Of a stretch of 64,000 bases of DNA, positions 21,366 through 45,334 are shown piece by piece. The DNA comes from an uncultured Clostridium sp. GTDB lineage: Bacteria; Bacillota; Clostridia; Christensenellales; CAG-138. The notes beneath the pieces are model-generated. The model saw nothing but the letters and a program-made list of their open reading frames with translations, was not told the origin of the DNA and did no database searches. Position 1 is the first letter of the stretch. Each line of letters opens with the position of its first letter. The stretch spans positions 23,425 to 87,424 of the forward strand of contig CAZTFU010000003.1 in the NCBI GenBank assembly GCA_964612925.1. Direction: 5' to 3'. The translations under genes were made by a program, and so were the position numbers.

Positions 21366-21485
21366 ATATAGCATATCCTTTCGCTTTTATATTAAAACGG
21401 TTAGTGCGGGGCAAAGGTTGCATATTTTTTGCCTTGACATAAGAGCACGCATAATATAGGCTAATTTTAGCATATATTTGGAGGT

Positions 21486-29767: not shown

Positions 29768-29804
29768 GAAAAACTCGAATAAGTGGCAAGCCGCCACTTA
29801 TTCG
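29768..29804 (-). terminator. Terminator closing the paralogue array
   Basis: 12-bp stem cgaataagtggc/gccacttattcg followed on the minus strand by agtttttcc. Confidence 0.65.
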
Positions 29805-29817
29805 ACACTTTGTGCCG

Positions 29818-30633: not shown

Positions 30634-30687
30634 TGTTTCCCTCCTGTGGTTTTATGTTGTAAAAGCGGCTTTCGGCGCTCATGCGGC

Positions 30688-32811
30688 CTACTCACCCGTC
30701 CTCGGCAGCAGCTCACGCGGCTCGCGGCCGATATAGCGCAGTACAAAGGCAATTGCGCTGAGCATAAACAATCCTGCCGCTAAAGCAAATGCGGCCGTGC
30801 TCACGGTTTTTTCGGCTCCTACGGTGATTTCCATATGAACCTCGTTGCCGCCGATTATATATGCGCTGAATGCAAGGAATTCTTCGGGTGTGGCGTTGCT
30901 TTCCGTCATTATTTCCTCGCCGACATCCTCCGTCAGCATATGACCCGTTATGCTACCCGCAGCGGCTCCCACGAGCACTATCAGTAAGGCACTGAGCAGT
31001 ACCGCCGCAAAGCATTGCGCCTTACTGCACCCAAGAAGGCGCATCGTGCCGACACACTGCTTCTGCGAATTTGCGTAGAAGAAGGCTATCATTATGGTAG
31101 CTATCACAAGCAGTGCGCTTGAAAGTATCAGAAGAAGCTCCGCCGTGCCGCTGAGCGTTTCAAGGCTCGGCTGTATGCGGGAATATCCCTGATCGTAGAA
31201 GGTAATCTTAACATCGTAATCGTCGCGGTCGAAAATGCCCGTTTCTTCCGCACTTTCAAGGAAGTCATTCACCTTGCCGTTCTCGATCCAAAGCGTAAGC
31301 AGTGACCCGCTCACCTGCCGCGTTTCCTCCGCGGGTGCGTTTTCAAGCGATTTCTCGGGAACGTATATCGTGTTCCACGGCACGCTTGCGGCGGCGTATG
31401 AAATTTCCGTATTGCCCACCAACGGTTTCACATCGAATATGCCGACAATTTCATACTCCCCGCCGTCAAAGAATTGGTCTCTTTCCGTATATCTGTACAG
31501 CGGCGCAAGCGTTGTGTCGTTGCCATTCGTTTTGGTAAAATAATCATATTCGTAAAAGTCAAAGCTTATCTTGTCGCCCAAACTCCAGCCCTGCTTTTGT
31601 GCAAGCTCCGCACTTACAATGCAAACATCGGCTCCCGATGCAAACTCCTCATCCGTAATGTTTCGTCCCTCGCGCATATAAATGTTGCCCATGTGGAACG
31701 CGGGCACACCCATCATGTCATCAAGCGCAACAACGCCGAAGGAACGCGCGTTTATATGGTATGCGTAGCTTATCTGCTCATATTTTGCTTTAAGCTCGGG
31801 GTCGGATTGCACATAATCAAACCTTACCAGCCAAAACGGGTTATCTTCGCTCCATCTTTGGTATCGCGTCTCTTCACCCAGTGCCGTAGCCCTATTGGAG
31901 TAAACAAAATAGAGCTCATTAAACAGATAATCGTGATAAAAAGAAAGAGGTGCCCCCTTATATTTTCCGTCGGATGCGATATAAGAGTTGAAGTTATTTT
32001 CATATATTCTGTATAACCTATGTGCGGCGTTCTTAAGTACCCCTATATACTCAACGCCGGGTTCAAGTCCCGCATAACCCTCTTCAAAATTAAAATTTAT
32101 CGATTCAATCTCATCCGCATACTTTTCATACATATGTTTAAGGCGTTCTTCATTGTTCCACCCATAACCATATAGTTCTATGTTAATGCATTGTATTCTG
32201 TCTTCATATGTAAAGCAGTCCGTTGCCGATTCCAAAACGTCAAGCAGAATATCTGTTCGTTTTTCGTTCGTTTGGTAATCAAAATACCCGATTTCGGATA
32301 TTATTTGATCCATGTCCAGTATTCTAAAATTTCCGTTATCGTCGGTATAAAGTGTAATTTTATTAAATTCCGCATCCCTGCCGCTGTTATCCTCTTCATT
32401 TATGCGAAAACGAATAACATCATCTTCAAATGCGGGATAATCTTCATCTCTGTCAAGTCTTATATTTTCTTCGCTGTATGCACCGTAGGTTGCCCGAAGA
32501 TCGTATTTTATAACGTTTGCCGCCGTGGTCAGGGGATAAAAATCATAACCGTTTACCGTAAGTGTATGATAGCCGATGTAATTTTCGGAAAGGATATCGT
32601 CCGTCAGATTGCCGTATTCGTCAGTCTCCGCATACAGCTCCACAACGCCTATTGTTGTATATGTTTCCTCTGCACGTTGCAAATTGTTTATGCTGTTTAC
32701 ATAAAGGTTCAGGCTGGTACAAAAAAACGCCGTCAGCAGCGCAAGAATCAATATATACAGCACTATTCGCCCGCTTTTGCGAAACATCTGCCTGAAATGC
32801 ATGGATAGCAT
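30688..32811 (-). CDS. Orphan FtsX/MacB-type permease (paralogue 2 of 4)
   Basis: 707 aa with the same architecture as 10144-12237. The first 40 aa are nearly identical to that paralogue. VGTMRLLGCSK; tail EPRELLPRTGE. Confidence 0.75.
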   Translation of the reverse strand: MLSMHFRQMFRKSGRIVLYILILALLTAFFCTSLNLYVNSINNLQRAEETYTTIGVVELYAETDEYGNLTDDILSENYIGYHTLTVNGYDFYPLTTAANVIKYDLRATYGAYSEENIRLDRDEDYPAFEDDVIRFRINEEDNSGRDAEFNKITLYTDDNGNFRILDMDQIISEIGYFDYQTNEKRTDILLDVLESATDCFTYEDRIQCINIELYGYGWNNEERLKHMYEKYADEIESINFNFEEGYAGLEPGVEYIGVLKNAAHRLYRIYENNFNSYIASDGKYKGAPLSFYHDYLFNELYFVYSNRATALGEETRYQRWSEDNPFWLVRFDYVQSDPELKAKYEQISYAYHINARSFGVVALDDMMGVPAFHMGNIYMREGRNITDEEFASGADVCIVSAELAQKQGWSLGDKISFDFYEYDYFTKTNGNDTTLAPLYRYTERDQFFDGGEYEIVGIFDVKPLVGNTEISYAAASVPWNTIYVPEKSLENAPAEETRQVSGSLLTLWIENGKVNDFLESAEETGIFDRDDYDVKITFYDQGYSRIQPSLETLSGTAELLLILSSALLVIATIMIAFFYANSQKQCVGTMRLLGCSKAQCFAAVLLSALLIVLVGAAAGSITGHMLTEDVGEEIMTESNATPEEFLAFSAYIIGGNEVHMEITVGAEKTVSTAAFALAAGLFMLSAIAFVLRYIGREPRELLPRTGE

Positions 32812-32851
32812 TGTATTTCCCTCCTTTATTATATTGGTTAAGTAAATAAGT

Positions 32852-32890
32852 AAAAGGTAAAGCGGGGAAGAGTAGTTTCCTCCCCCGCTT
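32852..32890 (-). terminator. Terminator of the small Cys-rich gene 32902-33219
   Basis: Minus strand agcgggggag-gaaactact-cttccccgct followed by ttacctttt. Confidence 0.65.
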
Positions 32891-32901
32891 ATTACTGTCC
32901 G

Positions 32902-33219
32902 TTAATTACCGCCGTTATGGCAGTCCCATACTTCTTTAGTGCCTATTACAGAAGAATATCCATAACCGCAATCAGGGCACTGCCATGTCCTTACGACATT
33001 GTATACATACACCCAATCCTCCGAATCGCCAAGTGGAGTGCCATTCTTTCCATGTATGCATGTTGTTTTATAGGAATACACAAATACATCCGAATCGCCA
33101 ACAAGCCTCATGGTCCCGCCGCAGTCGCACTTTTCCGCGCGTGCCGCGGCAATTGCCACAAATGCAAGTAGCACCATAACAGCAGCTAAAACGATTGCAA
33201 TTCTCTTTTTCATGTTCAA
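32902..33219 (-). CDS. Exported small Cys-rich protein (family S, member 1)
   Basis: 105 aa. Signal peptide ends AAARA|E. Mature part: C-x-C...C...W-Q-C-x2-C...C-H. Confidence 0.75.
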   Translation of the reverse strand: MNMKKRIAIVLAAVMVLLAFVAIAAARAEKCDCGGTMRLVGDSDVFVYSYKTTCIHGKNGTPLGDSEDWVYVYNVVRTWQCPDCGYGYSSVIGTKEVWDCHNGGN

Positions 33220-33407
33220 ATTCCTCCTTAAATAGTATAGTTGTCAGTTCTTCCGCGATAAATCGCAGATGTTCCTCCCCACTACGGCGAGCATATCTGC
33301 TCGGTCTATTTTGAGGTTATCCGACTTGCGTCGGTGCGACGTTAAGACCATACCGTATGTTGGTATTTCCTTGGGTAAAGATTACCATACTCAAAGCATG
33401 TTGTCAA
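33220..33407 (-). promoter_or_regulatory. Sigma-A promoter (TTGACA-17-TAATCT, 33379-33407) plus ~150-nt structured leader L1
   Basis: Hexamers with a 17-nt spacer. The leader holds GNRA hairpin ccgac-gcaa-gtcgg, gagca-gata-tgctc and ctgcga-ttta-tcgcgg before the RBS AAGGAGG. Confidence 0.55.
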
Positions 33408-33436
33408 TGGGTTTTTCACACGCCACAGGGGAGTTT

Positions 33437-35515
33437 CTACTCCCCTGCCCGTGGCAACAATTCGCGCGGTTCTTTACGGAGATACCCCACTACGCGGAAT
33501 ATCACGCCGCCCAAGAACAGCACAAGTGCCACTCCGCCTGCGATAAGCGTTACGTTCAGCGTGGCCTCAAGTGCAAACTCCATCTCTACATTTGATGTGT
33601 CGGTAAGGTATGCGCTGAATCCGCGGTATTCCTCGGGCGTGGTGTCGGCATTCGAAACTATGTTCTCTGCCACCTGCTGTGTAAGAGTATGACCTGCATA
33701 TGCACCGATTCCCGTGCCGAGCAATGCTATTATTATTGCTCCGAGCATTACGGCGATAAAGCTCCTTATTTTGCTATTACCGAGCAATCTCATTGTGCCG
33801 ATGCTCTGCTTATTCGCCTGTGCATAGAAGAATGAAAGCAGCAGTGCCGCAATTACAAGCAGTGCGCCCGACAGCAGCAACAACAGCTCCGCAGTGCCGC
33901 TGAGTGCTTCAAGGCTTGGCTGTATGCGCGAATAGCCCTGATCGTAGAATGTAAATTTGGCTTCATAATCGCCTTCTTTGCGGCCTGTGATGCCGTTTTC
34001 CTCCATATACTCGAGGAAGGGCTCTATCTTGCCGTTTTCAAGCCACAGCGTCATAAGTGCGCCCGTGACCTGCCTATCTTCCTCCGCAGGGGCGTTGGGC
34101 ACGGATGCGGCAGGGATGTATATCGTGTTCCACGGCACGCTGAGTGTGGAAAGCGCAACTTCCGAATTGCCTGTTACGGGTCTCACCTTATAAATGCCGA
34201 CTATTTCATATTCGCCGCTGTCAAAGAAGTTGTCAAGCTCCTCGTGGGTGTAATAGGGCGTGAGCGTGTTGGATTCAAGCGTTCCGTTTATGAAATAATC
34301 AAACTCGTAAAAGTCGAAATTTACCTTATCGCCAATCTCCCAACCCTGTGCGGCGGCAAGCTGTGAGTTTATCATGCATACCTTTGCACCGTTTTCATAC
34401 TCCTCCTCGGTTATCATTCGGCCGTCATGTACATACATATGGCCCATGTGGAACGCGGGCACGCCGCTCATATCGTTTGTCGCCATTACAGCGAACGAAT
34501 GTGCGTTTATCTTGTATGCGTTGAATACCTGCTCATATTTTGCAAACAGCTCGGGATCAGCCTCAATGTCGGAATATCTGTGTATCGGGAAAAGCACGTC
34601 CGTTGCCTTTTCTCCGATTTTGGACCACCATTTAATTCTCTCTGCGGTTTCGCCTTCGCCCTGCGAATACCTGAATGTCCAATTGGTGCTGAATACTTCC
34701 TCGTCACCTTGCACGTCATGTATGTTATATCTGCCGTTCGACGCCTTCTGTGTATCGTCACCGTTAAGCGAAACATATCCATATATTACATATTCCGTAT
34801 TCGGCTCAATCACTATGGTATCATATACGCCGCCGCCGTTCAGCGTATCGAGTACCGTATCCACATCCTCGGAATAATTTATGCCGTCGTATACACTTAC
34901 CGTCAAAGACACGTTATTCGAATCATAATCGTATATGTCCGCAGCCGATTCTATAACATGCAAATTGTAGGATCTGTCGCTGAAATGCCCATCAGACCCA
35001 CGCGCTTGATAATACAGAAAAATACGGTAGTTTCCATCGGGAACATATTTGGTATCAACCCAATCCTTATGCTCTTCCTTCTGCGTTTGTTCCTCGGGTA
35101 CGATTTTGAAGCGTATAAAATCTTCCTTGAACAGACGTTCGGTTTTGTTTTTCATTGCGTAATTACCTTCGCTGTATGCGCCGTAACGCGCGCGAAGATC
35201 ATATTTTATAACGCTCGGAGCGTTTACTATGGGCGTAATATCATACCCCTTCACGGTAACGCTGTAGTAGCCCGCATAATCATCCGCCGTAGTAATATCC
35301 TCCACAAGGTTGCCGAAGGAGTCAACGTCCGCATACAGCTCCATTACGGCAATAGTTGTGTAGGTATCCGCCGCAAGGCGAATGTTATGCTGACTGTTGT
35401 TGTACAGGTTCAGGCTCATGCAGAAAAATGCCGTAAGCAGTATCAGCACAAGCACATACAGCAACGTCCGCATGGGTTTACGTATCATTTGCTTCAAAAA
35501 CATAACTACGTGCAT
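33437..35515 (-). CDS. Orphan FtsX/MacB-type permease (paralogue 3 of 4)
   Basis: 692 aa; IGTMRLLGNSK; tail EPRELLPRAGE. The 3' 628 bp are identical to paralogue 4. Confidence 0.75.
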   Translation of the reverse strand: MHVVMFLKQMIRKPMRTLLYVLVLILLTAFFCMSLNLYNNSQHNIRLAADTYTTIAVMELYADVDSFGNLVEDITTADDYAGYYSVTVKGYDITPIVNAPSVIKYDLRARYGAYSEGNYAMKNKTERLFKEDFIRFKIVPEEQTQKEEHKDWVDTKYVPDGNYRIFLYYQARGSDGHFSDRSYNLHVIESAADIYDYDSNNVSLTVSVYDGINYSEDVDTVLDTLNGGGVYDTIVIEPNTEYVIYGYVSLNGDDTQKASNGRYNIHDVQGDEEVFSTNWTFRYSQGEGETAERIKWWSKIGEKATDVLFPIHRYSDIEADPELFAKYEQVFNAYKINAHSFAVMATNDMSGVPAFHMGHMYVHDGRMITEEEYENGAKVCMINSQLAAAQGWEIGDKVNFDFYEFDYFINGTLESNTLTPYYTHEELDNFFDSGEYEIVGIYKVRPVTGNSEVALSTLSVPWNTIYIPAASVPNAPAEEDRQVTGALMTLWLENGKIEPFLEYMEENGITGRKEGDYEAKFTFYDQGYSRIQPSLEALSGTAELLLLLSGALLVIAALLLSFFYAQANKQSIGTMRLLGNSKIRSFIAVMLGAIIIALLGTGIGAYAGHTLTQQVAENIVSNADTTPEEYRGFSAYLTDTSNVEMEFALEATLNVTLIAGGVALVLFLGGVIFRVVGYLRKEPRELLPRAGE

Positions 35516-35544
35516 ATTCTATCCTCCTTGTGTGGCGCACTTTT

Positions 35545-35664
35545 TTACATCAACAGGAAAGCACATTTTCCCGTTATTCTCGTTTTATTTACAGGAAAGC
35601 CCGATATACAGGCAAAAAGGCCACAGTAAACACAGATTGAAAATTTTGTCACGTTTGTGTTCAT
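35545..35664 (-). CDS. Possible 39-aa Cys-rich hydrophobic peptide (below the ORF-track cutoff)
   Basis: Own translation: MNTNVTKFSICVYCGLFACISGFPVNKTRITGKCAFLLM. RBS AAAGGAGGG lies 6 nt upstream. The stop lies 27 nt before the permease ATG. Confidence 0.3.
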   Translation of the reverse strand: MNTNVTKFSICVYCGLFACISGFPVNKTRITGKCAFLLM

Positions 35665-35702
35665 AGCGACCCTCCTTTATTTCAATATATTGTATGTTCG
35701 CC

Positions 35703-36113
35703 TTAACCTTCCGGCGTCGGTGTTGCCTCAGCTACATCGTCTGCGGCTTCGAGGTCGGCAGTGCCCTCGGGTATGGGGGTTTCGTGGTTGCATGTTATCT
35801 TGCTGTATGTCACTGTGTCCCCGTCAACAGACTCTATTGTCCAACTCGGGTCAGGCGATTCCGTGGGCATATATACCTTCCATATTTTCTTCATATCTTG
35901 TTTTGTACTATCTACCTGACATTGCACAAAGAATGCATCAATATCAAATTTATCACCGGGTTGTCTTGTTTTCTGAGTATTCGGCGTTATTGCGGGTCTT
36001 GGTCTTTCAGTCAACTCAGGCTCCTCTTCTATTGTCTGCGGCTTTGTGCAAGCTGAAAAGGCAAACGCAACTAACAGTACTATAAATAAGAAAAATCTAA
36101 GCTTAGATTTCAT
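35703..36113 (-). CDS. Small lipoprotein, single WKV/TYSK-CxH module
   Basis: 136 aa; lipobox AFSAC; KIWKVYMPTESPDPSWTIESVDGDTVTYSKITCNHE; acidic tail ending TPTPEG. Confidence 0.8.
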   Translation of the reverse strand: MKSKLRFFLFIVLLVAFAFSACTKPQTIEEEPELTERPRPAITPNTQKTRQPGDKFDIDAFFVQCQVDSTKQDMKKIWKVYMPTESPDPSWTIESVDGDTVTYSKITCNHETPIPEGTADLEAADDVAEATPTPEG

Positions 36114-36144
36114 GTGATTCCCTCCTATCTTCGCAATAAGTTCC

Positions 36145-36576
36145 TTACCCTTCGGGCGTCGGTGTTACTTCTGCGGGTTCCTCTGCACCATCTGTCTCGG
36201 CAACGCCCTCAGTCTCCTCGGGATGAAACGCATACGGGTCAGGGGTTTCGTGGTAACATGTTATCTTGCTGTAGATAACAAGGCCATCCTCCTCGGATTC
36301 CACCGTCCAATTTGGGTCGGGTGATTCCGTGGGCATATAAATCTTCCATGTAATCTTAGTATCACGTGCTGTAGTATCCACTTGACACTGCACCCATTCA
36401 CAGTTATAGTCAAATGCTTCGTTTGGCGTCATTGTTTTTTTGGGGCTTGGGGTTATTTTCGGCCGTGAAGTGGGTGTTACGGTTGGTTCTGCCTCCTCAA
36501 CGGGTTTCGCGCAGGCTGAAAAGACAAACGCAAGTACCAGTACTATAAATAATAAGAATCTAATTTTAGATTTCAT
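36145..36576 (-). CDS. Small lipoprotein, single module
   Basis: 143 aa; lipobox VFSAC; ITWKIYMPTESPDPNWTVESEEDGLVIYSKITCYHE; tail ...EVTPTPEG. Confidence 0.8.
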   Translation of the reverse strand: MKSKIRFLLFIVLVLAFVFSACAKPVEEAEPTVTPTSRPKITPSPKKTMTPNEAFDYNCEWVQCQVDTTARDTKITWKIYMPTESPDPNWTVESEEDGLVIYSKITCYHETPDPYAFHPEETEGVAETDGAEEPAEVTPTPEG

Positions 36577-36607
36577 ATGTTTCCCTCCTATCTTCGCAAG
36601 AAGCTCC

Positions 36608-37021
36608 TTACCCTTCGGGCGTTGGTGTTACCTCAGTTACATCGTCTGCGACTTCAATGTCGGCAGTGCCCTCGGGTATGGGGGTTTCGTGGTTGCATGT
36701 TATCTTGCTGTATGTCACTGTGTCCCCGTCAACAGACTCTATTGTCCAACTCGGGTCAGGCGATTCCGTGGGCATATATACCTTCCATGTCTGTTTTGTA
36801 TCGTTACGTGTGTTATCTATCTGACATTTTACAAATTCGTTAACATAACCATACGCATCGCCGGGGTTGTAACTGGGTGTTTTCTTGGGGCTCGGGGTTA
36901 TTTTTGGCCTTGAGGTGGGCGTCACGGTCGGTTCTGCCTCCTCAACGGGTTTCGCGCAGGCGGAAAAGGCGAGCACGAGCAATAACACTATAAATAAGAA
37001 AAACCTAAACTTAGATTTCAT
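36608..37021 (-). CDS. Small lipoprotein, single module (mosaic of its two neighbours)
   Basis: 137 aa. The N-terminal 48 aa resemble 36145-36576. The C-terminal module and tail are nucleotide-identical to 35703-36113 over 130 bp. Confidence 0.8.
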   Translation of the reverse strand: MKSKFRFFLFIVLLLVLAFSACAKPVEEAEPTVTPTSRPKITPSPKKTPSYNPGDAYGYVNEFVKCQIDNTRNDTKQTWKVYMPTESPDPSWTIESVDGDTVTYSKITCNHETPIPEGTADIEVADDVTEVTPTPEG

Positions 37022-37040
37022 ATGTTTCCCTCCTGTTATG

Positions 37041-37075
37041 TTTATTTAATCGAAGGGGGCGTAAGTCTCGCCCCC
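37041..37075 (-). terminator. Terminator of the small Cys-rich gene 37089-37394
   Basis: Minus strand gggggcg-agactta-cgccccc followed by ttcgattaaataaa. Confidence 0.55.
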
Positions 37076-37088
37076 ACTCGATGCACAA

Positions 37089-37394
37089 TTATTTGTGCTT
37101 ACATGTTATTTTGGACTTCAATACGGTATCAGTATATGCAACGCTACAGTTAGGATTGGAACACTCCCACAATTCGTCAACATACCATGTCTGCTTGATA
37201 TCGTTATTCACTTTGGTTATACTGCAATAAACAAGAGTGTTTTTATACCCATACGGGTCAGATACCTCTACACGTTGCATTACGCCATTTTCGCACGCAG
37301 TGCACCCTTCTGCCCTTGCCAAGGCAAGCGCGCCAAATGTTGCAAGCACAATAATTACGCACATCATCAGTGCAAATTTTTGTACACTTCTCAT
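37089..37394 (-). CDS. Exported small Cys-rich protein (family S, member 2)
   Basis: 101 aa. Signal peptide MRSVQKFALMMCVIIVLATFGALALARA|E. C-x2-C...C...W-E-C-x3-C...C-K-H. Confidence 0.75.
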   Translation of the reverse strand: MRSVQKFALMMCVIIVLATFGALALARAEGCTACENGVMQRVEVSDPYGYKNTLVYCSITKVNNDIKQTWYVDELWECSNPNCSVAYTDTVLKSKITCKHK

Positions 37395-37575
37395 AATTTC
37401 TACCTCCGTTTTCTTAAGTTATGTCGTTCGCGGTTGCCCGCTTTACTGCTCGACCCGCCCACATAGACAAAGTGAGCTACTTTGGAAAATGAACCGACCC
37501 CGTCGGTTCGGGGGTATCTTCATTCATGACCATGAATGTTAAGTTAATAGTACCATATATGCCGCTACATGGCAA
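37395..37575 (-). promoter_or_regulatory. Promoter (TTGCCA-17-TACTAT, 37547-37575) plus leader L3
   Basis: Leader contains the 8+8 palindrome cattcatg-gt-catgaatg at the predicted transcript start. It also holds hairpin gaaccgac-ggg-gtcggttc followed by attttcc. Confidence 0.55.
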
Positions 37576-37614
37576 GTCTTTTCTCAATCCCGTTTAATGT
37601 TAATTTTCTTAACA

Positions 37615-38082
37615 TTAAACCTCGGGTGTCGGTGTTACCTCAGTGATCTCCTCTGCGCCCTCAATCTCGGCAGTGCCCTCAGTCTCCTCGGGATGAAACG
37701 CATACGGATCGGGGGTTTCGTGGTCGCATTTTATGCTGCTGTATGTCACTATGTCCCCGTCAACGGACTCTATCGTCCAATTTGGGTCAGGCGTGCCGAT
37801 TGGTTTATATATTTTCCATGTTGTTTTTTCATCGCGTGCAGTTGTATCTATCTCACACTGCAGATACTCATATTCAAAGCCATATCGAACGCCGGGTGTA
37901 GGTTTTGGCGTTACCTTGGGCCCGGGCGTAATTTTAGGTCTTGATGCCGCCGTTACGGCAGGAGTTACGCTTGACTTTGGTGTTGATGAAGGTTCATCCA
38001 CATCAGCAGGCTTTGCACAGGCGGAAAGGACAAGAATAAGCAACAATACTATAGCTACGAAACACCTTGTTTTTTTCTTCAT
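37615..38082 (-). CDS. Small lipoprotein, single module
   Basis: 155 aa; lipobox VLSAC; TTWKIYKPIGTPDPNWTIESVDGDIVTYSSIKCDHE; tail shared with 36145-36576. Confidence 0.8.
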   Translation of the reverse strand: MKKKTRCFVAIVLLLILVLSACAKPADVDEPSSTPKSSVTPAVTAASRPKITPGPKVTPKPTPGVRYGFEYEYLQCEIDTTARDEKTTWKIYKPIGTPDPNWTIESVDGDIVTYSSIKCDHETPDPYAFHPEETEGTAEIEGAEEITEVTPTPEV

Positions 38083-38108
38083 GTTTTTCCCTCCCGTAAT
38101 GTTTGTTT

Positions 38109-38135
38109 AGCGGAGCAGAGATGCTCTGCTCCGCT
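38109..38135. terminator. 12-bp perfect hairpin downstream of 38146-38451 (no clear U-tract)
   Basis: agcggagcagag-atg-ctctgctccgct. Confidence 0.35.
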
Positions 38136-38145
38136 TTCGACATTG

Positions 38146-38451
38146 TCAATGGTTGCAGATTATTTTACTATGCTGTACTCTGCTTTCGGTATACCTGTTA
38201 TTACACTTTGGATTTGAACACTCCCATATTTCATTTACATACCACGTTACCTTAGTGTCATTCTTTAATCCAGTTTTATTGCAATACACCATAGTATAGG
38301 AGTATTCATCTAAATCTTCCGTGCTACTAAGTTGGAAATACCCATTTTCACATACGGTGCATCCGTCAACCCTTGCCAAGGCAAGTGCGCCAAATGTTGC
38401 AAGCACAATAATTACGCACATCATCAGTGCAAATTTTTGTACACTTCTCAT
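38146..38451 (-). CDS. Exported small Cys-rich protein (family S, member 3)
   Basis: 101 aa. Signal peptide identical to member 2. The mature part has diverged but keeps the Cys/His pattern. Confidence 0.75.
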   Translation of the reverse strand: MRSVQKFALMMCVIIVLATFGALALARVDGCTVCENGYFQLSSTEDLDEYSYTMVYCNKTGLKNDTKVTWYVNEIWECSNPKCNNRYTESRVQHSKIICNH

Positions 38452-38633
38452 AATTTCTACCTCCGTTTTCTTAAGTTATGTCGTTCGCGGTTGCCCGCTT
38501 TACTGCTCGACCCGCCCACATAGACAAAGTGAGCTACTTAGGGAAAATGAACCGACCCCGTCGGTTCGGGGGTATCTTCATTCATGGCCATGAATGTTAA
38601 GTAAATAGTACCATATATGCCACTGCATAACAA
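38452..38633 (-). promoter_or_regulatory. Second copy of promoter plus leader L3 (TTGTTA-17-TACTAT)
   Basis: About 97% identical to 37395-37575. Confidence 0.5.
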
Positions 38634-38660
38634 GTTAACAAAATGTTAATTCTTTTGCCG

Positions 38661-39581
38661 CTATCCCTCGGGCGCAGGTGTCGGCTCGGCGGCGGCATCG
38701 TCTGTTATTTCTGTGTCGATATCGGCCTCGGGTACGGGCGTTTCGTGGTCGCATATCAGCATACCGTATGTTACAACAGCCCCGTCATCATCTATCACTA
38801 TCCAGCTCGGGTCGGGCGACTCGGTTGGCATGTACACTTCCCACGTCATTAACATGTCCCACCGCGTGCCGTCTATAGCGCACCGTTGGGATTCGTATAT
38901 ATAGTCGGTTGAAGCACCGGGTTCGGGCGATTGGTCGGCATATGCCTTGTGATTTTTGGGACAAACTGCTCGAGTATAATATATCCACTCGCCGTCTGCA
39001 CTCTCCCCTCTATATTTCCATGAACTATCGGGTACAAAGCCGCTCGATGTGTGTATTTGCATTTCGAATTCGTTATCCCACAATTCTAACCACGGATTTA
39101 ATTGGCATCTTGTCTGAAAACCCATTTTTTGAACACACCAATGTTTCATAGGACATACGCGCCCCTCATAAAAGGTCAATATGCCGTTTTCGCTCGATAT
39201 AAGCTCGCCCCATTCCTCGTACTTATATTCGGCGTTATACAGTTCCTCCCGCACGATTCGCGTTCTGTAATAATCTGTATCCTCGGGATCGATTTCGCAT
39301 GGGGTATCTTCGTCAATTATTTTCACGTGATCGCATATTATTTTGCTGTATGTCACCACTCGCCCGTCAACAGATTCCACCGTCCAGTACTTGTCTGGCG
39401 TTTCAACGGGAGATTTCACCTTCCACGTTTCCTTGGTATCCGTTTGGGTTTCATCCACGGCACAAACAATTGTTTCGGTTGTAATGTCATACCGCGTGTC
39501 GGTTTCCTTCTTAAACATCGTGCAGGATGAAAGAGTTAAAAGCAACAAAGCAAATATCAATACATTTATTGTCCGTTTCAT
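38661..39581 (-). CDS. Lipoprotein, WKV/TYSK-CxH module family (4 modules)
   Basis: 306 aa with lipobox LTLSSC. Modules end in DGRVVTYSKIICDH, ENGILTFYEGRVCPMKH, DGEWIYYTRAVCPKNH and DGAVVTYGMLICDHE. Tail ends PTPAPEG. Confidence 0.8.
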   Translation of the reverse strand: MKRTINVLIFALLLLTLSSCTMFKKETDTRYDITTETIVCAVDETQTDTKETWKVKSPVETPDKYWTVESVDGRVVTYSKIICDHVKIIDEDTPCEIDPEDTDYYRTRIVREELYNAEYKYEEWGELISSENGILTFYEGRVCPMKHWCVQKMGFQTRCQLNPWLELWDNEFEMQIHTSSGFVPDSSWKYRGESADGEWIYYTRAVCPKNHKAYADQSPEPGASTDYIYESQRCAIDGTRWDMLMTWEVYMPTESPDPSWIVIDDDGAVVTYGMLICDHETPVPEADIDTEITDDAAAEPTPAPEG

Positions 39582-39600
39582 AATTCCCTCCTAAATATAT

Positions 39601-39639
39601 TCTAAAATAGAGATATGCGGGGTGCAGAGCACCCCCGCA
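39601..39639 (-). terminator. Terminator of permease paralogue 4
   Basis: Minus strand tgcgggggtgc..gcaccccgca followed by tatctctatttt. Confidence 0.5.
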
Positions 39640-39656
39640 ACATACTTATACCGCTC

Positions 39657-41747
39657 TTACTCCCCTGCTCGTGGCAGCAGCTCACGCGGTTCTTTACGGA
39701 GATAGCCTACAATGCGGAATATCACTCCGCCCAAGAACAGCACAAGTGCCACTCCGCCTGCGATAAGCGTTACGTTCAGCGTGGCCTCAAGTGCAAACTC
39801 CATCTCTACATTTGATGTGTCGGTAAGGTATGCGCTGAATCCGCGGTATTCCTCGGGCGTGGTGTCGGCATTCGAAACTATGTTCTCTGCCACCTGCTGT
39901 GTAAGAGTATGACCTGCATATGCACCGATTCCCGTGCCGAGCAATGCTATTATTATTGCTCCGAGCATTACGGCGATAAAGCTCCTTATTTTGCTATTAC
40001 CGAGCAATCTCATTGTGCCGATGCTCTGCTTATTCGCCTGTGCATAGAAGAATGAAAGCAGCAGTGCCGCAATTACAAGCAGTGCGCCCGACAGCAGCAA
40101 CAACAGCTCCGCAGTGCCGCTGAGTGCTTCAAGGCTTGGCTGTATGCGCGAATAGCCCTGATCGTAGAATGTAAATTTGGCTTCATAATCGCCTTCTTTG
40201 CGGCCTGTGATGCCGTTTTCCTCCATATACTCGAGGAAGGGCTCTATCTTGCCGTTTTCAAGCCACAGCGTCATAAGTGCGCCCGTGACCTGCCTATCTT
40301 CCTCCGCAGGGGCGTTGGGCACGGATGCGGCAGGGATGTATATCGTGTTCCACGACACGCTGAGCGTGGATATAGCTACCTCGGAATTGCCCGTAACGGG
40401 TCTTGTCTGGTACACGCCCACAATTTCATATTCGCCGCTGTCAAAGAAGTTGTCGGGCTCGGTAAATGTATAATAGGGCCTTAATGTGTTGCCGTATATC
40501 GTGGCGTTGACAAAATAGTCATATTCATAGAAGCTGAAATCTATCTTGTCGCCGACCTTCCAGCGCTGTGCGTTCGCCAAATCCGCGCTTATCATGCAGA
40601 CCTTTGCGCCGCTTTCATACTCTTCCTCGGTTATCATTCGACCGTCTTGCACATACATATTTCCAAGGTGGAATGCAGGCACGCCGTTTACATCGTTTGT
40701 CGCCATCACCGCAAAAGAACGTGTGTTCACTTTGTATGCATAGAATATTTGTTCGTATTTTGCAAGCAGTTCCGGGTCAGCCTCAAGGTCGGAATATTTA
40801 TATACGGGAAAGAGCTGTTCCCCCTCCGTGTGATAGTTACGGTATGCATATTCGCTTTCTCCTGCCGCATATCGATATGACCATTCCACAAAAAAATCAT
40901 CATATTCGTAGGTGATCCAGTCGGGAACATATTTACCGTTTATATTCATTCTTCCCTCGTGATTCGCCTCCTGCGAGATATATCCCGACACAATATATTC
41001 CGTATTCGGTTCTATCACTATGGTGTTATATACTCCGCCGCCGTTAAGCCTATCCAGCGCATCGTTTATATCTTCGGAAAAACTCATCCACTCATACAGG
41101 CGTATTTCAAACACCATATTTCTGTTTTTATATGCATATGCATCCGTTGCGGATTCCACAACATCCAAAATATAATACCGAATCGGAACGGAACCACCGA
41201 TTAGCGGCAAACCGTTTTCCAATTTATACTTATCATTGTCTAAATAGATGCGATAGTTACCGTCATCAATGTACTCGCCAATATCGAACCACGGCTTATC
41301 CTCCTCCGCTTGTTTCTGATTCTCGGGCACTATTTTGAACCGTATTATATCCCGATGAAAAAGCGGCTCCGTTCTGGTTTTATTCAGGGCAATATTATCC
41401 TCGCTGTATGCGCCGTAGCGCGCGCGAAGATCGTATTTTATAACGCTTGGGGCGTTCACTATGGGCGTAAGGTCATAATCATTCACGGTAAGGCTATGAT
41501 AGCCCGCGTAATCCTCTGCCGTGGAAATATCCTCTATAAGGTTGCCGCGGGTGTCAACATCGGCATACAGCTCCATTACGGCAATGGTGGTGTAGGTATC
41601 CGCCGCAAGGCGAATGTTCTGCTGACTGTTGTTGTACAGGTTCAAGCTCATGCAGAAAAATGCCGTAAGCAGTATCAGCACAAGAACGTACAGCAACGTC
41701 CGCATGGGTTTACGAAACATCTGCCTTAAAAACATAACAACGTGCAT
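39657..41747 (-). CDS. Orphan FtsX/MacB-type permease (paralogue 4 of 4)
   Basis: The start is moved to MHVVMFLRQMF (AAGGAGGG 5 nt upstream), which matches the start of paralogue 3. About 696 aa. Confidence 0.75.
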   Translation of the reverse strand: MHVVMFLRQMFRKPMRTLLYVLVLILLTAFFCMSLNLYNNSQQNIRLAADTYTTIAVMELYADVDTRGNLIEDISTAEDYAGYHSLTVNDYDLTPIVNAPSVIKYDLRARYGAYSEDNIALNKTRTEPLFHRDIIRFKIVPENQKQAEEDKPWFDIGEYIDDGNYRIYLDNDKYKLENGLPLIGGSVPIRYYILDVVESATDAYAYKNRNMVFEIRLYEWMSFSEDINDALDRLNGGGVYNTIVIEPNTEYIVSGYISQEANHEGRMNINGKYVPDWITYEYDDFFVEWSYRYAAGESEYAYRNYHTEGEQLFPVYKYSDLEADPELLAKYEQIFYAYKVNTRSFAVMATNDVNGVPAFHLGNMYVQDGRMITEEEYESGAKVCMISADLANAQRWKVGDKIDFSFYEYDYFVNATIYGNTLRPYYTFTEPDNFFDSGEYEIVGVYQTRPVTGNSEVAISTLSVSWNTIYIPAASVPNAPAEEDRQVTGALMTLWLENGKIEPFLEYMEENGITGRKEGDYEAKFTFYDQGYSRIQPSLEALSGTAELLLLLSGALLVIAALLLSFFYAQANKQSIGTMRLLGNSKIRSFIAVMLGAIIIALLGTGIGAYAGHTLTQQVAENIVSNADTTPEEYRGFSAYLTDTSNVEMEFALEATLNVTLIAGGVALVLFLGGVIFRIVGYLRKEPRELLPRAGE

Positions 41748-41784
41748 ATTTTCCCTCCTTATGCGCTCATTTAATGTTAAATTT

Positions 41785-41813
41785 ATATTATCATATACGG
41801 TATATACCGTCAA
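41785..41813 (-). promoter_or_regulatory. Promoter TTGACG-17-TAATAT with an embedded 14-bp perfect palindrome ACGGTATATACCGT
   Basis: Hexamers and palindrome (41796-41809) read directly upstream of permease paralogue 4. Confidence 0.5.
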
Positions 41814-41846
41814 GAATTCTTAACGGCACATCCCGTTTTTTTGCTC

Positions 41847-42590
41847 TTACTCATCTGCCTTTTCGGCCAACGCAGCATAGGCCGCGGCATACGCCTCATG
41901 CTGTTCGTTGCAAGATATTTTCGAGTAATACTCCCAATCGCCTTCCGTATATTCATAGGTATAACCCTTGCCCGGCTTTGTCGAGAGCCAAGCGGGAACT
42001 TTCAAATATGATTTACAATCAAACAAGCCTGACTCGGGGCACAATTGACATGGAACAAGTTCGTCCATATCATCGCAACGAACAAATTGATGAATTATAT
42101 CGTTGCATTTAAGTGAAACCTCGTATGTTACAAATCCGTCTTCCGCTGATACTAATTTCCAGTTTGCCGGCTTTTCTTTTTTATTTGCGGTTTCTTCAAG
42201 CATGGTATAATAATACTGTAGGTCTGTTTCATCGGGATTATACGGACACTGAACCTCTTTGGTCGTACACTTCATGTGGTCGCAATACGTTTTGCTATAT
42301 GTTATAACATCCCCATCCACTTCTTCAACTACCCAAGCGGGGTCGGGCGATTCTGTAGGAGATTTTACTTTCCATATATCCTTTGTATCCTTCCTGTCCT
42401 CGTTCACTCTGCATGTAATGCGCTCCCTGTGGCGGTCAAAGCTTTCTCCCGCTTGGGGTTCGGGAGTGGGGGTGGGGAGTGCGGTAGGCAGCGGTGTTGG
42501 CTCCGTTTCATCAGCGGTCACATTCGGTGCGCAGGAAACAAGCTGTGTTATTATCAGTACGGTGATGAGTAAACCGAATAGCTTTTTCAT
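41847..42590 (-). CDS. Lipoprotein, WKV/TYSK-CxH module family (3 modules)
   Basis: The start is moved to MKKLFGLL (GGAGGG upstream). Lipobox QLVSC. Modules: DGDVITYSKTYCDH, EDGFVTYEVSLKCNDIIH, EGDWEYYSKISCNEQH. Confidence 0.8.
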   Translation of the reverse strand: MKKLFGLLITVLIITQLVSCAPNVTADETEPTPLPTALPTPTPEPQAGESFDRHRERITCRVNEDRKDTKDIWKVKSPTESPDPAWVVEEVDGDVITYSKTYCDHMKCTTKEVQCPYNPDETDLQYYYTMLEETANKKEKPANWKLVSAEDGFVTYEVSLKCNDIIHQFVRCDDMDELVPCQLCPESGLFDCKSYLKVPAWLSTKPGKGYTYEYTEGDWEYYSKISCNEQHEAYAAAYAALAEKADE

Positions 42591-42605
42591 AATATCCCTC
42601 CGTAT

Positions 42606-42637
42606 TATTAAAAAGGAATGGGGAGCAAAGCTCCCCA
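42606..42637 (-). terminator. Terminator of the small Cys-rich gene 42653-42979
   Basis: tggggagc-ttt-gctcccca followed by ttccttttt on the minus strand. Confidence 0.65.
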
Positions 42638-42652
42638 AATAAACGCGCCGTT

Positions 42653-42979
42653 TTAGCCCGCGTTATGCGGTCCGTGGTCACATATGTATACTTCTTCATA
42701 ACGATATGTCTCGTATTCATAACCACAATCTTTATTGTCGCACTTCCATGTGGTCGTATAGCGATACGTTACAATAGAGTCGGTTGCGCCAACCGTATTA
42801 TTGCAGGGTGTCGGCACGCTCTTGTATTTTGTCTTTACCGTATTCCCCTTTCTTACCGTTCCTTCGTTGCATTCTTCGCACGGTTCACCTCTTGCCGCAA
42901 CAAGCGCAGTAAATGCTGTAAGCACCATAAGCGCACACATCAGCAAGGCAAATGTTTTGACAGTCTTTGTTGATTTCAT
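42653..42979 (-). CDS. Exported small Cys-rich protein (family S, member 4)
   Basis: 108 aa. Signal peptide MKSTKTVKTFALLMCALMVLTAFTALVAAR. C-x2-C...C...W-K-C-x3-C...C-D-H. Confidence 0.75.
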   Translation of the reverse strand: MKSTKTVKTFALLMCALMVLTAFTALVAARGEPCEECNEGTVRKGNTVKTKYKSVPTPCNNTVGATDSIVTYRYTTTWKCDNKDCGYEYETYRYEEVYICDHGPHNAG

Positions 42980-43166
42980 TTTTCTTCCTCCTTTAATAAG
43001 TTTGTCCTTCTGCGGTCAAATCCGCAGATACAGCCCCATCGCCGCAGGCGTTTCTGCCCACCCGATTCAAGGGGGAATAGCCGACTTTCATCGGTACAAC
43101 AACACATTCGCGCCAAATTATGGCAGGAACTGATTTTATATTATCATACGCAGTATGCGCTGTCAA
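42980..43166 (-). promoter_or_regulatory. Promoter (TTGACA-17-TAATAT, 43138-43166) plus ~150-nt leader L2
   Basis: Leader hairpins ccgat-gaaa-gtcgg (GNRA loop) and ctgcgg-atttga-ccgcag, then RBS AAAGGAGG. Confidence 0.55.
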
Positions 43167-43201
43167 CGGTTTTTTGGCTGTGAAGCGGTCTGTTTTCGCC
43201 C

Positions 43202-43936
43202 TTACTCCTCTGCCTTTTCGGACGATGTACCGTATTTTTCGGCGTAAGTTGCGTGCATATCATCGCATTCTATGTAAGAGTAAACATCCCACTCTCCTTC
43301 CGTATATTCATAGGTATAACCTTCGCTTGGTTTTTCTCTGTCCTCAAGCGAAGCAAGCACCTTTAAATACCACTTAGTATCGTACACATATATCGTCTCA
43401 CCATTATAAATAAATTCAGGACATAGTTGGCATGGAATTTCATCTGTTTCCTTCATATGTTTATACCTGTGAAGGTTAAGCGTGCATTCAACCGAACTTT
43501 TGTACGTTACAATTCCGTTTTCGTTCGATACCACTTCGTAGTTTGACCCAAATCCGCTCCGGTTTGCCGTTTCTTCAAGCATGGTATAATACAGTTGTTC
43601 ATGTGTATCTTCGGAGTTAATGGGACAAGGGACTGTTTTTTTACCTATTTTTATATGGTCGCAATACGTTTTGCTGTATGTTACAACGTCACCGTCCACT
43701 TCTTCCACTACCCAACTTGGGTCGGGCGATTCGGTGGGGGATTTTACCTTCCATGTGTCCTTTGTATCCTTTTCATTCTCATCTACTCTGCATGTAACGC
43801 GCTCCCTGTGGCGGTCAAAGCTTTCGCCCGCTTGAAGCTCCGGAGTAGGTTCTGCGGCCTGTTCAACCTCGGATGCACATGCAAACATAACCAATGCCAC
43901 GGCCACGCACAGCAATATGCACAGTAACTTTTTCAT
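43202..43936 (-). CDS. Lipoprotein, WKV/TYSK-CxH module family (3 modules)
   Basis: Start at MKKLLCILL. Cys of VMFAC is the likely lipidation site. Modules: DGDVVTYSKTYCDH, ENGIVTYKSSVECTLNLH, EGEWDVYSYIECDDMH. Confidence 0.75.
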   Translation of the reverse strand: MKKLLCILLCVAVALVMFACASEVEQAAEPTPELQAGESFDRHRERVTCRVDENEKDTKDTWKVKSPTESPDPSWVVEEVDGDVVTYSKTYCDHIKIGKKTVPCPINSEDTHEQLYYTMLEETANRSGFGSNYEVVSNENGIVTYKSSVECTLNLHRYKHMKETDEIPCQLCPEFIYNGETIYVYDTKWYLKVLASLEDREKPSEGYTYEYTEGEWDVYSYIECDDMHATYAEKYGTSSEKAEE

Positions 43937-43966
43937 AATATGTTCCCTCCTGTAACTCATAAGCCC

Positions 43967-44725
43967 TTACTCCTCTGCCTTTTCTGTCCGTGCGGCGTAG
44001 TATGCGTGCATATCATCACATTCTATGTATGAGTATACATCCCAATCTCCTTCCGTGTATTCATATGTGTAGCCCTCACCCGGTTTTTCTCTATCCTCAA
44101 GTGAAGAATGCATCATTATATAATGCTTAGTATCGTAAATATATGTCGTCTCGCCGTTATAAATAAATTCGGGGCATAATTGGCACGGAACTTTATCGCT
44201 TTTGTTTACATGCTTAATTCTATGTCCAATATCACTGCATTTAACCGCTCCTCTGAACGTTACAATTCCGTTTTCGTTCGTTATCATTTCGCAATCCGAC
44301 CAAAACCCTTCCTGATTTGCCGTTTCTTCAAGCATGACATAATACACCTGTTTATCTGTCTCTTCGGAGTTAATCGGGCACGGAACTGTTTTTTTAATTA
44401 TTTTTACATGATCGCAATATGTTTTGCTGTATGTTACAACGTCACCGTCCACTTCTTCAACCACCCAACTCGGGTCGGGCGATTCGGTAGGGGACTTTAC
44501 CTTCCATGTATCTTTTGTGTCCTTTTCATCCTCGTTCACTCTGCATGTAATGCGCTCCCTGTGGCGGTCAAAGCTTTCGCCCGCTTGGGGTTCGGGAGTG
44601 GGAGTGGGTTCAGCGACCTGTTCAACATCAGAGTTTAAGTCATTCGTTATATCTTCATCCGCCGCACATGCAAACATAACCGATGCCACGGCCATGCACA
44701 GCAATATGCACAGTAACTTTTTCAT
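43967..44725 (-). CDS. Lipoprotein, WKV/TYSK-CxH module family (3 modules)
   Basis: Start at MKKLLCILL (AGGAGGG upstream). Close paralogue of 43202-43936. Confidence 0.75.
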   Translation of the reverse strand: MKKLLCILLCMAVASVMFACAADEDITNDLNSDVEQVAEPTPTPEPQAGESFDRHRERITCRVNEDEKDTKDTWKVKSPTESPDPSWVVEEVDGDVVTYSKTYCDHVKIIKKTVPCPINSEETDKQVYYVMLEETANQEGFWSDCEMITNENGIVTFRGAVKCSDIGHRIKHVNKSDKVPCQLCPEFIYNGETTYIYDTKHYIMMHSSLEDREKPGEGYTYEYTEGDWDVYSYIECDDMHAYYAARTEKAEE

Positions 44726-44747
44726 AATATGATCCCTCCTATGGCTA

Positions 44748-44778
44748 ATAAACACAAAAGGGAGCATAGCTCCCCTTT
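44748..44778 (-). terminator. Terminator of the small Cys-rich gene 44793-45122
   Basis: aaggggagc-tat-gctccctttt followed by gtgtttatt on the minus strand. Confidence 0.6.
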
Positions 44779-44792
44779 GCCTACTTTAGTTG

Positions 44793-45122
44793 CTATTTAT
44801 CGTAGCCACTGTCTCTGTCATGGCCGCATGAACGAACCGTCTCTGTAGAGGTTCTGGTATAAGCAACCTCACCACAGCTTCTGCACGCCCAGTACTTAGT
44901 AACACGGTAATCTGTCAACACATCCGAATAAATCGGATTAACACTGCATATTACTACCCTGCTGCTAACAAATTCTCTGGTCGTGTCAGAAGAAAGAACC
45001 ACTTGGCCGCCACATGACTCACATCGCTCTGCCCTTGCCGCAACAAGCGCAGTAAATGCTGTAAGCACCATAAGCGCACACATCAGCAAGGCAAATGTTT
45101 TGACAGTCTTTGTTGATTTCAT
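44793..45122 (-). CDS. Exported small Cys-rich protein (family S, member 5)
   Basis: 109 aa. Signal peptide identical to member 4. Mature part: C-x2-C...C...W-A-C-x2-C...C-G-H. Confidence 0.75.
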   Translation of the reverse strand: MKSTKTVKTFALLMCALMVLTAFTALVAARAERCESCGGQVVLSSDTTREFVSSRVVICSVNPIYSDVLTDYRVTKYWACRSCGEVAYTRTSTETVRSCGHDRDSGYDK

Positions 45123-45309
45123 TTTTCTTCCTCCTTTAATAAGTTTGTCCTTCTGCGGTCAAATCCGCAGATACAGCCCCATCGCCGCAGGCGTTTCTGC
45201 CCACCCGATTCAAGGGGGAATAGCCGACTTTCATCGGTACAACAACACATTCGCGCCAAATTATGGCAGGAACTGATTTTATATTATCATACGCAGTATG
45301 CGCTGTCAA
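45123..45309 (-). promoter_or_regulatory. Second, identical copy of promoter plus leader L2
   Basis: 100% identical to 42980-43166, as part of the 279-bp identity block 45034-45312. Confidence 0.55.
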
Positions 45310-45334
45310 CGGGTTTTTGGCCGTAAAGCAGTAT

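Follow-up and report, generated by a model that had tools for sequence, protein, structure and literature searches.

In Borrelia burgdorferi, the genes with an upstream homology box (UHB), namely the ospE, ospF and elp (Erp) genes, also share a leader peptide, the mature parts of their products are divergent, and the pattern is attributed to recombination. We describe a similar pattern in a 64,000-nucleotide stretch of DNA from an uncultured Clostridium sp. (the window). Two tandem genes of the window, A1 and A2 (pair A), encode small secreted proteins with six cysteines, and they have in common a nearly identical block that holds the promoter, the 5′ leader, the ribosome-binding site (RBS) and the signal peptide. 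We think that this cassette was probably copied or homogenised between A1 and A2 in the recent past, and that the mature parts are old paralogues that have been conserved separately.

According to a passage in PMC7002432 that cites Marconi 1996 and Akins 1999, the promoter sequences of the OspE paralogues (the UHB) are similar to those of OspF. As a phenomenon, UHB/Erp is the closest known case, in that these too are paralogues for exported proteins with a near-identical promoter or upstream region. Pair A has the features of this kind of locus: a near-identical promoter and signal peptide, divergent mature parts, and phylogenetic incongruence; and the pattern recurs in a second pair, B1 and B2 (pair B). 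However, the UHB/Erp proteins are surface lipoproteins encoded on cp32 prophage plasmids of a spirochaete, while A1 and A2 are chromosomal tandem genes for Sec-type, non-lipoprotein, Cys-rich proteins of gut Clostridia. Family library searches found no sequence relationship between A1 or A2 and the Erp or UHB genes, and we know of no counterpart in the Borrelia UHB genes to the long structured leader of pair A.

Conotoxins and the Vlp/Vsa proteins of Mycoplasma also belong to multigene families in which the 5′ or signal region is conserved and the mature region diverges, as here. But the mature parts of conotoxins and Vlp/Vsa show positive selection, repeats or site-specific inversion, while mature A1 has a ratio of nonsynonymous to synonymous divergence (ω, or dN/dS) of 0.023 and no signals of repeats or inversion. 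Also, the lipobox cysteine of Vlp/Vsa at the cleavage site is not found in A1 or A2. The initial annotation had likened the pattern to secreted toxins, bacteriocin-like peptides and Vlp/Vsa antigens, and we treat these as possible resemblances. We conclude that the phenomenon is of a known kind and that the gene family is undescribed and very rare. The features of pair A are:

37089–37394, minus strand: gene A1, for a small secreted six-Cys protein (101-amino-acid precursor); open reading frame (ORF) with family profile matches; signal peptide 37394–37317, mature part 37316–37092
38146–38451, minus strand: gene A2, a 101-amino-acid paralogue of A1; ORF; signal peptide 38451–38374, mature part 38373–38149
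37313–37575, minus strand: 5′ cassette, A1 copy, probably homogenised; −35 37575–37570; −10 37552–37547; leader ~37540–37395; Shine–Dalgarno sequence (SD); codons 1–27
38370–38633, minus strand: 5′ cassette, A2 copy, probably homogenised; alignment to the A1 copy; hidden Markov model (HMM) of the leader matches at 38636–38453

The two copies of the block align over 264 columns with 9 differences (8 substitutions and 1 indel), or 96.6% identity. The initial annotation had described a block of about 262 bp with about 8 differences; the near-identity is real and the count was slightly too low. Four of the nine differences are clustered at the −35 edge (37564–37572), and there is only one difference across 37482–37316. 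In a 30-nucleotide profile across the whole ~1.06-kb tandem units, which are spaced 1057 bp apart, identity is 93–100% at 37554–37316 and 30–70% on either side. The best segment by chi-square has 98% identity within it and 58% outside. None of 1000 permutations of the columns scored as high as the observed alignment (maximum permuted chi-square of 20, versus 141 observed), so the pattern is far beyond chance.

As the initial annotation had proposed, the −35 and −10 elements, the leader, the RBS and the signal peptide all lie within 37313–37575. The order is promoter, leader of ~150 nucleotides, strong SD (GGAGG) and then the first 26–27 codons, which encode the signal peptide. At A1, the promoter has a −35 of TTGCCA, a 17-nucleotide spacer, and a TG-extended −10 of TACTAT (37575–37547), which is predicted to be a sigma-70-type promoter with an extended −10. 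The encoded signal peptide is MRSVQKFALMMCVIIVLATFGALALA. It begins with basic residues, followed by a hydrophobic stretch of ~20 amino acids and by A-x-A ahead of an invariant arginine, and it is predicted to be of the Sec type (type I). There is no lipobox at the cleavage site of A1 or A2, where the signal peptide ends in ALA directly before R; its sole cysteine (LMMC, position 12) is mid-helix and has no lipobox context. In the AlphaFold2 (AF2) model of A1 (predicted local distance difference test score, or pLDDT, of 85–87), the signal peptide is an N-terminal helix, with residues 3–27 forming a single helix, and a four-stranded sheet follows. The mature parts of A1 and A2 are 53% identical in amino acid sequence, which is higher than the ~45% first reported, and all six cysteines and the histidine are retained, as had been noted.

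Evidence for separate histories of the cassette and the mature part comes from synonymous sites, which we counted for A1 and A2 by the Nei-Gojobori method. In the signal peptide, the proportion of synonymous sites that differ (pS) is 0.056, which is one synonymous change in 26 codons. In the mature part, pS is 0.876 (saturated), and the corresponding nonsynonymous proportion (pN) is 0.296. A step from 0.056 to 0.876 in pS cannot stem from selection on the protein.

The sole close relative of A1 among 5.8 billion proteins is P0006, which was found in two Logan assemblies (loci L008 and L009). The mature parts of A1 and P0006 are 93% identical as proteins, with dN of 0.049, dS of 2.16 and ω of 0.023. 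In contrast, the signal peptide of P0006, which is MKKIMVLLSFIMIAATLAGAASA, is unrelated to the signal peptide of A1 and A2, and its distal leader is unrelated as well. The nucleotide identities by segment are:

5′ leader: A1–A2, 97%; A1–L008, 82%; A2–L008, 82%
distal leader, RBS and signal peptide: A1–A2, 99%; A1–L008, 50%; A2–L008, 50%
mature part: A1–A2, 56%; A1–L008, 82.5%; A2–L008, 57%

These three segments give incongruent relationships among A1, A2 and L008, so the cassette and the mature part differ in history, which is the signature of gene conversion. In the orthologue, identity across the distal leader and signal peptide is just 50%, so there is no intrinsic constraint on these parts, and their identity between A1 and A2 reflects recent common descent. 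The 5′ leader is different: it is 82% conserved between A1 and L008, whose synonymous sites differ at a pS of 0.71, which implies functional constraint. The lipoprotein genes that flank the A1 and A2 units are also old, with dS of ~1 between units.

The initial annotation had suggested that the cassette was homogenised or recently copied, and both the contrast in pS and the incongruent identities with L008 bear this out. It had also suggested diversifying selection on the exposed mature part, and that this be examined by dN/dS for each segment. For pair A, the ratio is well below 1 (A1 versus its orthologue, as above), the outcome that the initial annotation had named as refuting it, and we reject diversifying selection for this pair. 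Mature A1 and mature A2 are paralogues of long standing, and purifying selection acts strongly on each.

The same mosaic pattern is found elsewhere in the cluster. The window contains five genes of this family (C, A1, A2, B1 and B2), and the other three are:

42653–43170, minus strand: gene B1 (42653–42979, 108 amino acids) and its 5′ cassette; 42901–43170 is 100% identical to the B2 copy
44793–45313, minus strand: gene B2 (44793–45122, 109 amino acids) and its 5′ cassette (~45044–45313); its orthologue P0007 adjoins CopA in loci L001–L007
32902–33410, minus strand: gene C (32902–33219, 103–105 amino acids), the fifth member of the family; its promoter and leader are homologous to those of the other four

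The promoter, leader and signal peptide of B1 and B2 are 100% identical across 270 bp (42901–43170 versus 45044–45313), while the flanks are 30–45% identical. The B2 orthologue P0007 has a B-type leader with 83–93% identity, that is, with 7–17% of the block being different, and the B1 orthologue (P0009, locus L011) has a clearly different leader. As the B2 orthologue has the B-type leader and the B1 orthologue does not, this suggests that the conversion of pair B ran from B2 to B1.

Two paralogous permease genes (33437–35515 and 39657–41813) are 100% identical over ~630 bp at their 3′ ends (33476–34105 and ~39696–40325), which encode the C-terminal FtsX membrane domain, while their large extracytoplasmic domains are 44–62% identical. 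The short lipoprotein genes are mosaics too.

Mature B2 is itself a mosaic. Between the window and L001, the genome background is a dS of ~0.5 and an ω of ~0.04. Compared to its orthologue, the mature part of B2 has a dN of 0.30, or about tenfold above its neighbours. The segment for its N-terminus and strands 1–2 (codons ~30–58, 44956–45015) has a dS of 2.26 and a dN of 0.57. Because this dS is above the background of ~0.5, the segment predates the split of the genomes, which indicates exchange of alleles or paralogues rather than positive selection in situ. The suggestion that the mature part is assembled by recombination thus holds in part: the locus is mosaic, as seen in the B2 segment and the permease 3′ ends. 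The B2-type orthologue is identical in seven independent assemblies over a stretch that starts 300 bp upstream of the gene and ends 128 bp beyond its stop codon.

We considered four other explanations for the shared block. The first, which was the main reading of the initial annotation, is a recent tandem duplication of a whole gene, followed by very fast divergence of the mature part under positive selection, with the 5′ part being too young to have diverged. It fits with the tandem units, 1057 bp apart, with the mature parts that differ at 47% of residues while keeping every cysteine, and with the dN of B2 being ~10 times that of its neighbours. But it does not explain why pS is saturated in the mature part (0.876) and yet only 0.056 in the signal peptide, since selection on the protein cannot yield this contrast. 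It is also contradicted by mature A1 being 93% identical to its orthologue despite near-saturated synonymous sites (ω = 0.023), by the age of the flanking lipoprotein genes (dS ~1), and by the disagreement between the tree of the cassette and the tree of the mature part. We consider this account highly improbable. It also seems unlikely that there was no recombination and that functional constraint on every base (as regulatory RNA or DNA and as signal peptide) has kept the block identical. Constraint on every base would not explain why identity across the distal leader, RBS and signal peptide is only 50% against the A1 orthologue but reaches 99% between A1 and A2, with synonymous sites counted; nor why B1 and B2 are 100% identical across 270 bp where the B2 orthologue differs by 7–17%. 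More broadly, L008, L001 and L011 show that the block diverges freely between species and is identical within a genome. What does fit with constraint is the 5′ leader, which is a conserved, family-specific element and is far better kept between A1 and L008 than synonymous sites are.

Programmed variation, in which a shared cassette recombines with alternative mature parts as in the Vlp/Vsa, pilE/pilS or vls systems, would be attractive given several paralogues with the same 5′ cassette, the mosaic segments in mature B2, and a polymorphism in a related species between intact and deleted alleles (described below). However, there are no silent cassettes: all copies are complete genes, each equipped with a promoter, a leader, a start and a stop. 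We found no tandem repeats (using Tandem Repeats Finder) and no inverted repeats of the inversion type in or around the genes; apart from the palindromic hairpin of the leader, the scan for inverted repeats found nothing. Among the cluster's genes (29.8–45.3 kb) we saw no recombinase, the signal peptides of A1 and A2 are of the Sec type instead of the lipoprotein type, and the region of the B2-type orthologue is the same in seven independent assemblies. So we view programmed variation as very unlikely. Finally, repeats of 240–630 bp at 97–100% identity are hard for short-read assemblers, the window looks like a metagenome-type contig, and identity is 100% both in the B blocks and in the permease 3′ ends, so one might ask if the block is an artefact of metagenome assembly (a collapsed repeat or a chimeric join). 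This is scarcely credible for pair A: the copies differ at 9 positions and hence are distinct sequences, both have unique, colinear flanks, and independent assemblies of other samples (L008/L009 and L001–L007) join the same leader to the same mature types.

Several points do weigh against our reading that the cassette was recently copied and that the mature parts are separately conserved. We found no orthologue of A2, and the tract ends and direction of conversion rest on one orthologue per gene. The signal peptide may have been swapped in the lineage of L008 rather than at A1/A2. Part of the identity of the 5′ leader may reflect constraint instead of conversion. The dN of B2 shows that not every family member is as constrained as A1. 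Also, the transcription start, the operon structure and the site of signal-peptide cleavage are predictions from sequence.

With these points in mind, our preferred explanation is still recent conversion. We propose that non-reciprocal recombination (gene conversion) has homogenised the whole expression and export cassette of the tandem paralogues. The most recent tract would be ~37482–37316, or the distal leader, RBS and signal peptide, and would end at the cleavage site; its direction was probably from A2 to A1. The 5′ leader, which is also similar because of functional constraint, probably supplies the homology that seeds conversion. Conversion tracts that run into the mature parts are presumably eliminated, given the strong purifying selection on these ancient paralogues. 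A shared cassette would keep the paralogues co-regulated and equally secretable. We regard this evolutionary mechanism as well supported, and take the block with its limits, the recombination, the purifying selection, the kinship within the family and the order of the genes as established; the biochemical role, which we infer, is treated below as a set of proposals.

The neighbours of pair A are lipoproteins and permeases:

37050–37083, minus strand: G+C-rich stem-loop (GGGGGCG..CGCCCCC), directly 3′ of the A1 stop codon; read from the sequence and kept in the L008 alignment
36608–37021, minus strand: lipoprotein gene, 137 amino acids, directly downstream of A1; lipobox FSAC; domain C..D.K.TWKV..PTESPDP.W...VTYSK..C.H
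37615–38082, minus strand: lipoprotein gene, 155 amino acids, directly downstream of A2; same family as the lipoprotein at 36608–37021
33437–35515, minus strand: MacB/FtsX-type permease, 692 amino acids, last gene of the string headed by A1; MacB_PCD and FtsX from Pfam, both above the gathering cut-offs
39657–41813, 30688–32811 and 10144–12237: permease paralogues of 33437–35515

The stem-loop is a possible partial terminator or 3′ stabiliser ahead of the lipoprotein gene; a terminator scan made no call at 37050–37083.

The lipoproteins, which carry the lipobox FSAC or LSAC, have a domain that is homologous to the C-terminal half of A1, with the C, D, W and CxH positions kept. Using tblastn, residues 46–101 of A1 match 36859–36686 with 44.8% identity (E = 1e-9). 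A1 is closest to its own neighbouring lipoprotein but A2 is not, so there is no clear signal of co-evolution. The lipoprotein family is rare as well, with 15 clusters in 5.8 billion proteins, and a profile scan found just one locus among 185,579 species genomes. All of the short lipoproteins and a 306-amino-acid one (within 35703–37021 and 37615–39581) share an acidic tail, at whose end ...TPTPEG or ...PTPAPEG is conserved. This conserved C-terminus may be a recognition tag.

PF12704 and PF02687 are above the gathering cut-offs in the permeases at 33437–35515 and 39657–41813. In the permease at 10144–12237, PF12704 is above the cut-off and PF02687 is just under it (24.4 versus 25.5 bits). The sole ABC_tran gene near a permease (13741–14463) is part of an amino-acid uptake operon. 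In a locus from a Clostridia metagenome-assembled genome (L010), a lipoprotein, a 677-amino-acid permease, a 418-amino-acid permease and the ATPase of an ATP-binding cassette (ABC) transporter are consecutive.

The minus strand carries all genes of the cluster (45.3–29.8 kb). Each Cys-rich gene has its own cassette and heads a co-directional string that holds one or more lipoprotein genes, one of them within ~70 bp downstream; in most of these strings there is also a MacB_PCD + FtsX permease of ~700 amino acids. The order Cys-rich gene, lipoprotein, permease is also found in L018/L019 and L022. On this chromosome, the interval between the genes for polynucleotide phosphorylase (PNPase) and CopA (29800–45300) is ~15.7 kb and contains 3 permeases, ~11 lipoproteins and 5 Cys-rich genes, while in the relatives L020/L021 one permease flanked by two lipoproteins is all that the same interval contains. 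The cluster is thus a tandem expansion of recent date. We also considered the adjacency of B2 to CopA as a clue to function, but it is kept only among close relatives and we take it to be synteny.

In one related species, six loci (L015 at 6650–6935, L016, L017 and L023–L025) share a deletion of the leader and the first ~12 codons of the Cys-rich gene. The gene is intact in other assemblies of related species (L018 at 6500–6935 and L022 at 2830–3271), and the lipoprotein and the permease are intact in both the deleted and the undeleted alleles.

All five family genes have promoters (TTGACA; TATGnTAATAT) and leaders that are homologous to one another. Within the window, the leader HMM matches only upstream of these five genes; elsewhere, it matches upstream of their relatives in other loci. 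Single-sequence folds of the leaders have four hairpins, with z-scores of −1.8 to −4.3, and in several of the folds a CCCCC or CCUC stretch is paired with the SD. A five-sequence consensus fold shows more pairs, but from an unreliable alignment. The only hairpin that is kept in all nine leaders compared, including the shorter leaders of a more distant species (L018 and L022), is GCGG..CCGC, which lies ~25 nucleotides upstream of the SD and has one compensatory change. At the gathering threshold, Rfam has no match to the leader; its only match in the whole window is Gut-1, which is elsewhere. At E ≤ 10, across 32.8–45.5 kb, there were only weak sub-threshold matches, and the only one in a leader was freshwater-2 (27.6 bits, versus a cut-off of 49.9). 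The leader appears to be a family-specific, constrained, structured element, which we stop short of calling a riboswitch on such thin data.

Upstream of the lipoprotein gene at 12311–13093, at 13614–13654 on the minus strand, there is also a weak match (E = 5e-4) to the leader HMM, in its promoter part only. In the syntenic locus L014, a Cys-rich gene (P0008) is in that place. Using tblastn, we did not find a pseudogene of a sixth family member upstream of 12311–13093. The Gut-1 RNA (RF01706, 92.6 bits) is at 19935–20011 on the minus strand, between a serpin gene (20103–21374) and an ORF of 240 amino acids (18889–19611) that has no match in Pfam.

Searched exhaustively with a profile, 1.84 billion representative proteins yielded just 16 matches to the Cys-rich family, and a narrower profile found only 4 metagenome loci. 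Fourteen of the 16 are of ~100 amino acids and have a signal peptide that ends in A-x-A before an invariant arginine. The mature part of ~75 amino acids has the pattern CxxC...C...D...Cx2-4C...CxH, with six cysteines, a histidine and an invariant aspartate; the exceptions are P0017, which lacks the second cysteine, and gene C, which has CxC. Of the two remaining matches, one is a two-domain protein. The other is P0019 (425 amino acids), a homologue of the BlaR1/M56-type membrane metalloproteases in which the Cys-rich domain is the extracellular C-terminal domain. This fusion hints that the domain could be a binding or sensor module.

We found no match for A1 or A2 in Pfam or NCBIfam at E ≤ 0.01, and nothing meaningful in Pfam, NCBIfam, PHROGs or PADLOC for the Cys-rich proteins or the lipoproteins. 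A search of PDB sequences with the family profile had no match at E ≤ 1. AF2 models of the family (pLDDT 85–87) have a four-stranded sheet with two long strands. The cysteine spacing resembles a zinc-ribbon or rubredoxin-like domain, with C31/C34 preceding strand 1 and C78/C83 at the turn that links strands 3 and 4, and Foldseek found no significant zinc-ribbon match for the models. The pattern of Cys, His and Asp suggests stabilisation by a metal or by disulfides. We view A1 and A2 as representatives of an undescribed and very rare family of secreted, beta-rich proteins in gut Clostridia.

What might these proteins do? Lactococcin 972 (Lcn972) is Sec-dependent and beta-rich. As introduced in PMC4055356, its clusters (lcn972, orf2, orf3) link the gene for a small secreted protein to putative ABC transporter genes, which are thought to provide immunity. 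A1 and A2 likewise have a predicted Sec-type signal peptide on a small protein (~60–75 amino acids when mature). But Lcn972 lacks a cysteine framework, while A1 and A2 have six cysteines, and PF09683, TIGR01653 and TIGR01654 had no match at A1/A2 or at the neighbouring permeases (which match MacB_PCD and FtsX only). Also unlike the Lcn972 clusters, the permeases here combine MacB_PCD and FtsX without an adjacent ATPase and are accompanied by lipoproteins with a homologous domain. MacB/FtsX-type systems handle or activate partners outside the membrane, such as MacAB with enterotoxin STII, LolCDE with lipoproteins, and FtsEX with PcsB or EnvC. The permeases here have the MacB periplasmic core and FtsX domains, and their genes are coupled to those for lipoproteins and for small Cys-rich proteins exported by Sec. 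However, their extracytoplasmic domain is unusually large (~500 amino acids), they are "orphans" in the window, and their putative partners are of an undescribed family.

Tentatively, we propose that the lipoprotein and MacB-type module handles the small proteins, which would be abundant and would act outside the cytoplasm as its partners or effectors. By analogy, the small proteins might most plausibly be Sec-dependent and bacteriocin-like, with the lipoprotein and the ABC components for self-protection. The main alternative would be a relay of a ligand or metal between the homologous secreted and anchored domains. Three observations weigh against these functional proposals: there is no ATPase gene next to the permeases in the window, and none in the 29.8–45.3 kb cluster; the Cys-rich proteins have no match to known families of bacteriocins, toxins, immunity proteins or defence proteins; and a Foldseek comparison of two AF2 models to PDB and BFVD gave a best E-value of 0.08, with TM-scores of ~0.3 for the best-ranked hits, so no fold can be assigned.

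A more elaborate and more doubtful version is a three-part extracytoplasmic system, in which a highly expressed, Sec-exported six-Cys mini-protein, a cognate membrane-anchored lipoprotein whose homologous domain acts as a "decoy" or "receiver", and a MacB-type mechanotransmission permease with a 500-amino-acid outer domain would work together. The mini-protein and the lipoprotein domain have the C..D..CxH site in common. Such a system could be a new class of Sec-dependent bacteriocin with its immunity, or a ligand or metal relay, and a new structured leader RNA, itself kept identical by gene conversion, would co-regulate its paralogues. If this is true, then the common deletion allele of the related species (L015–L017 and L023–L025) would be a state in which the toxin was lost and the immunity was kept.

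Whatever the proteins do, concerted evolution and diversifying selection can be told apart cleanly in this case. Conversion would keep identical those parts of the genes that face shared machinery (RNA polymerase or a regulator, the ribosome, and Sec), and selection would keep the extracellular part distinct. The permease paralogues follow the same logic, with an identical membrane domain and a diverged outer domain. We take this as a pointer to a general rule by which growing gene clusters remain co-regulated. And an unannotated, rare protein family with its own structured leader, linked to MacB-type permeases, offers targets for studying the role of orphan permeases.

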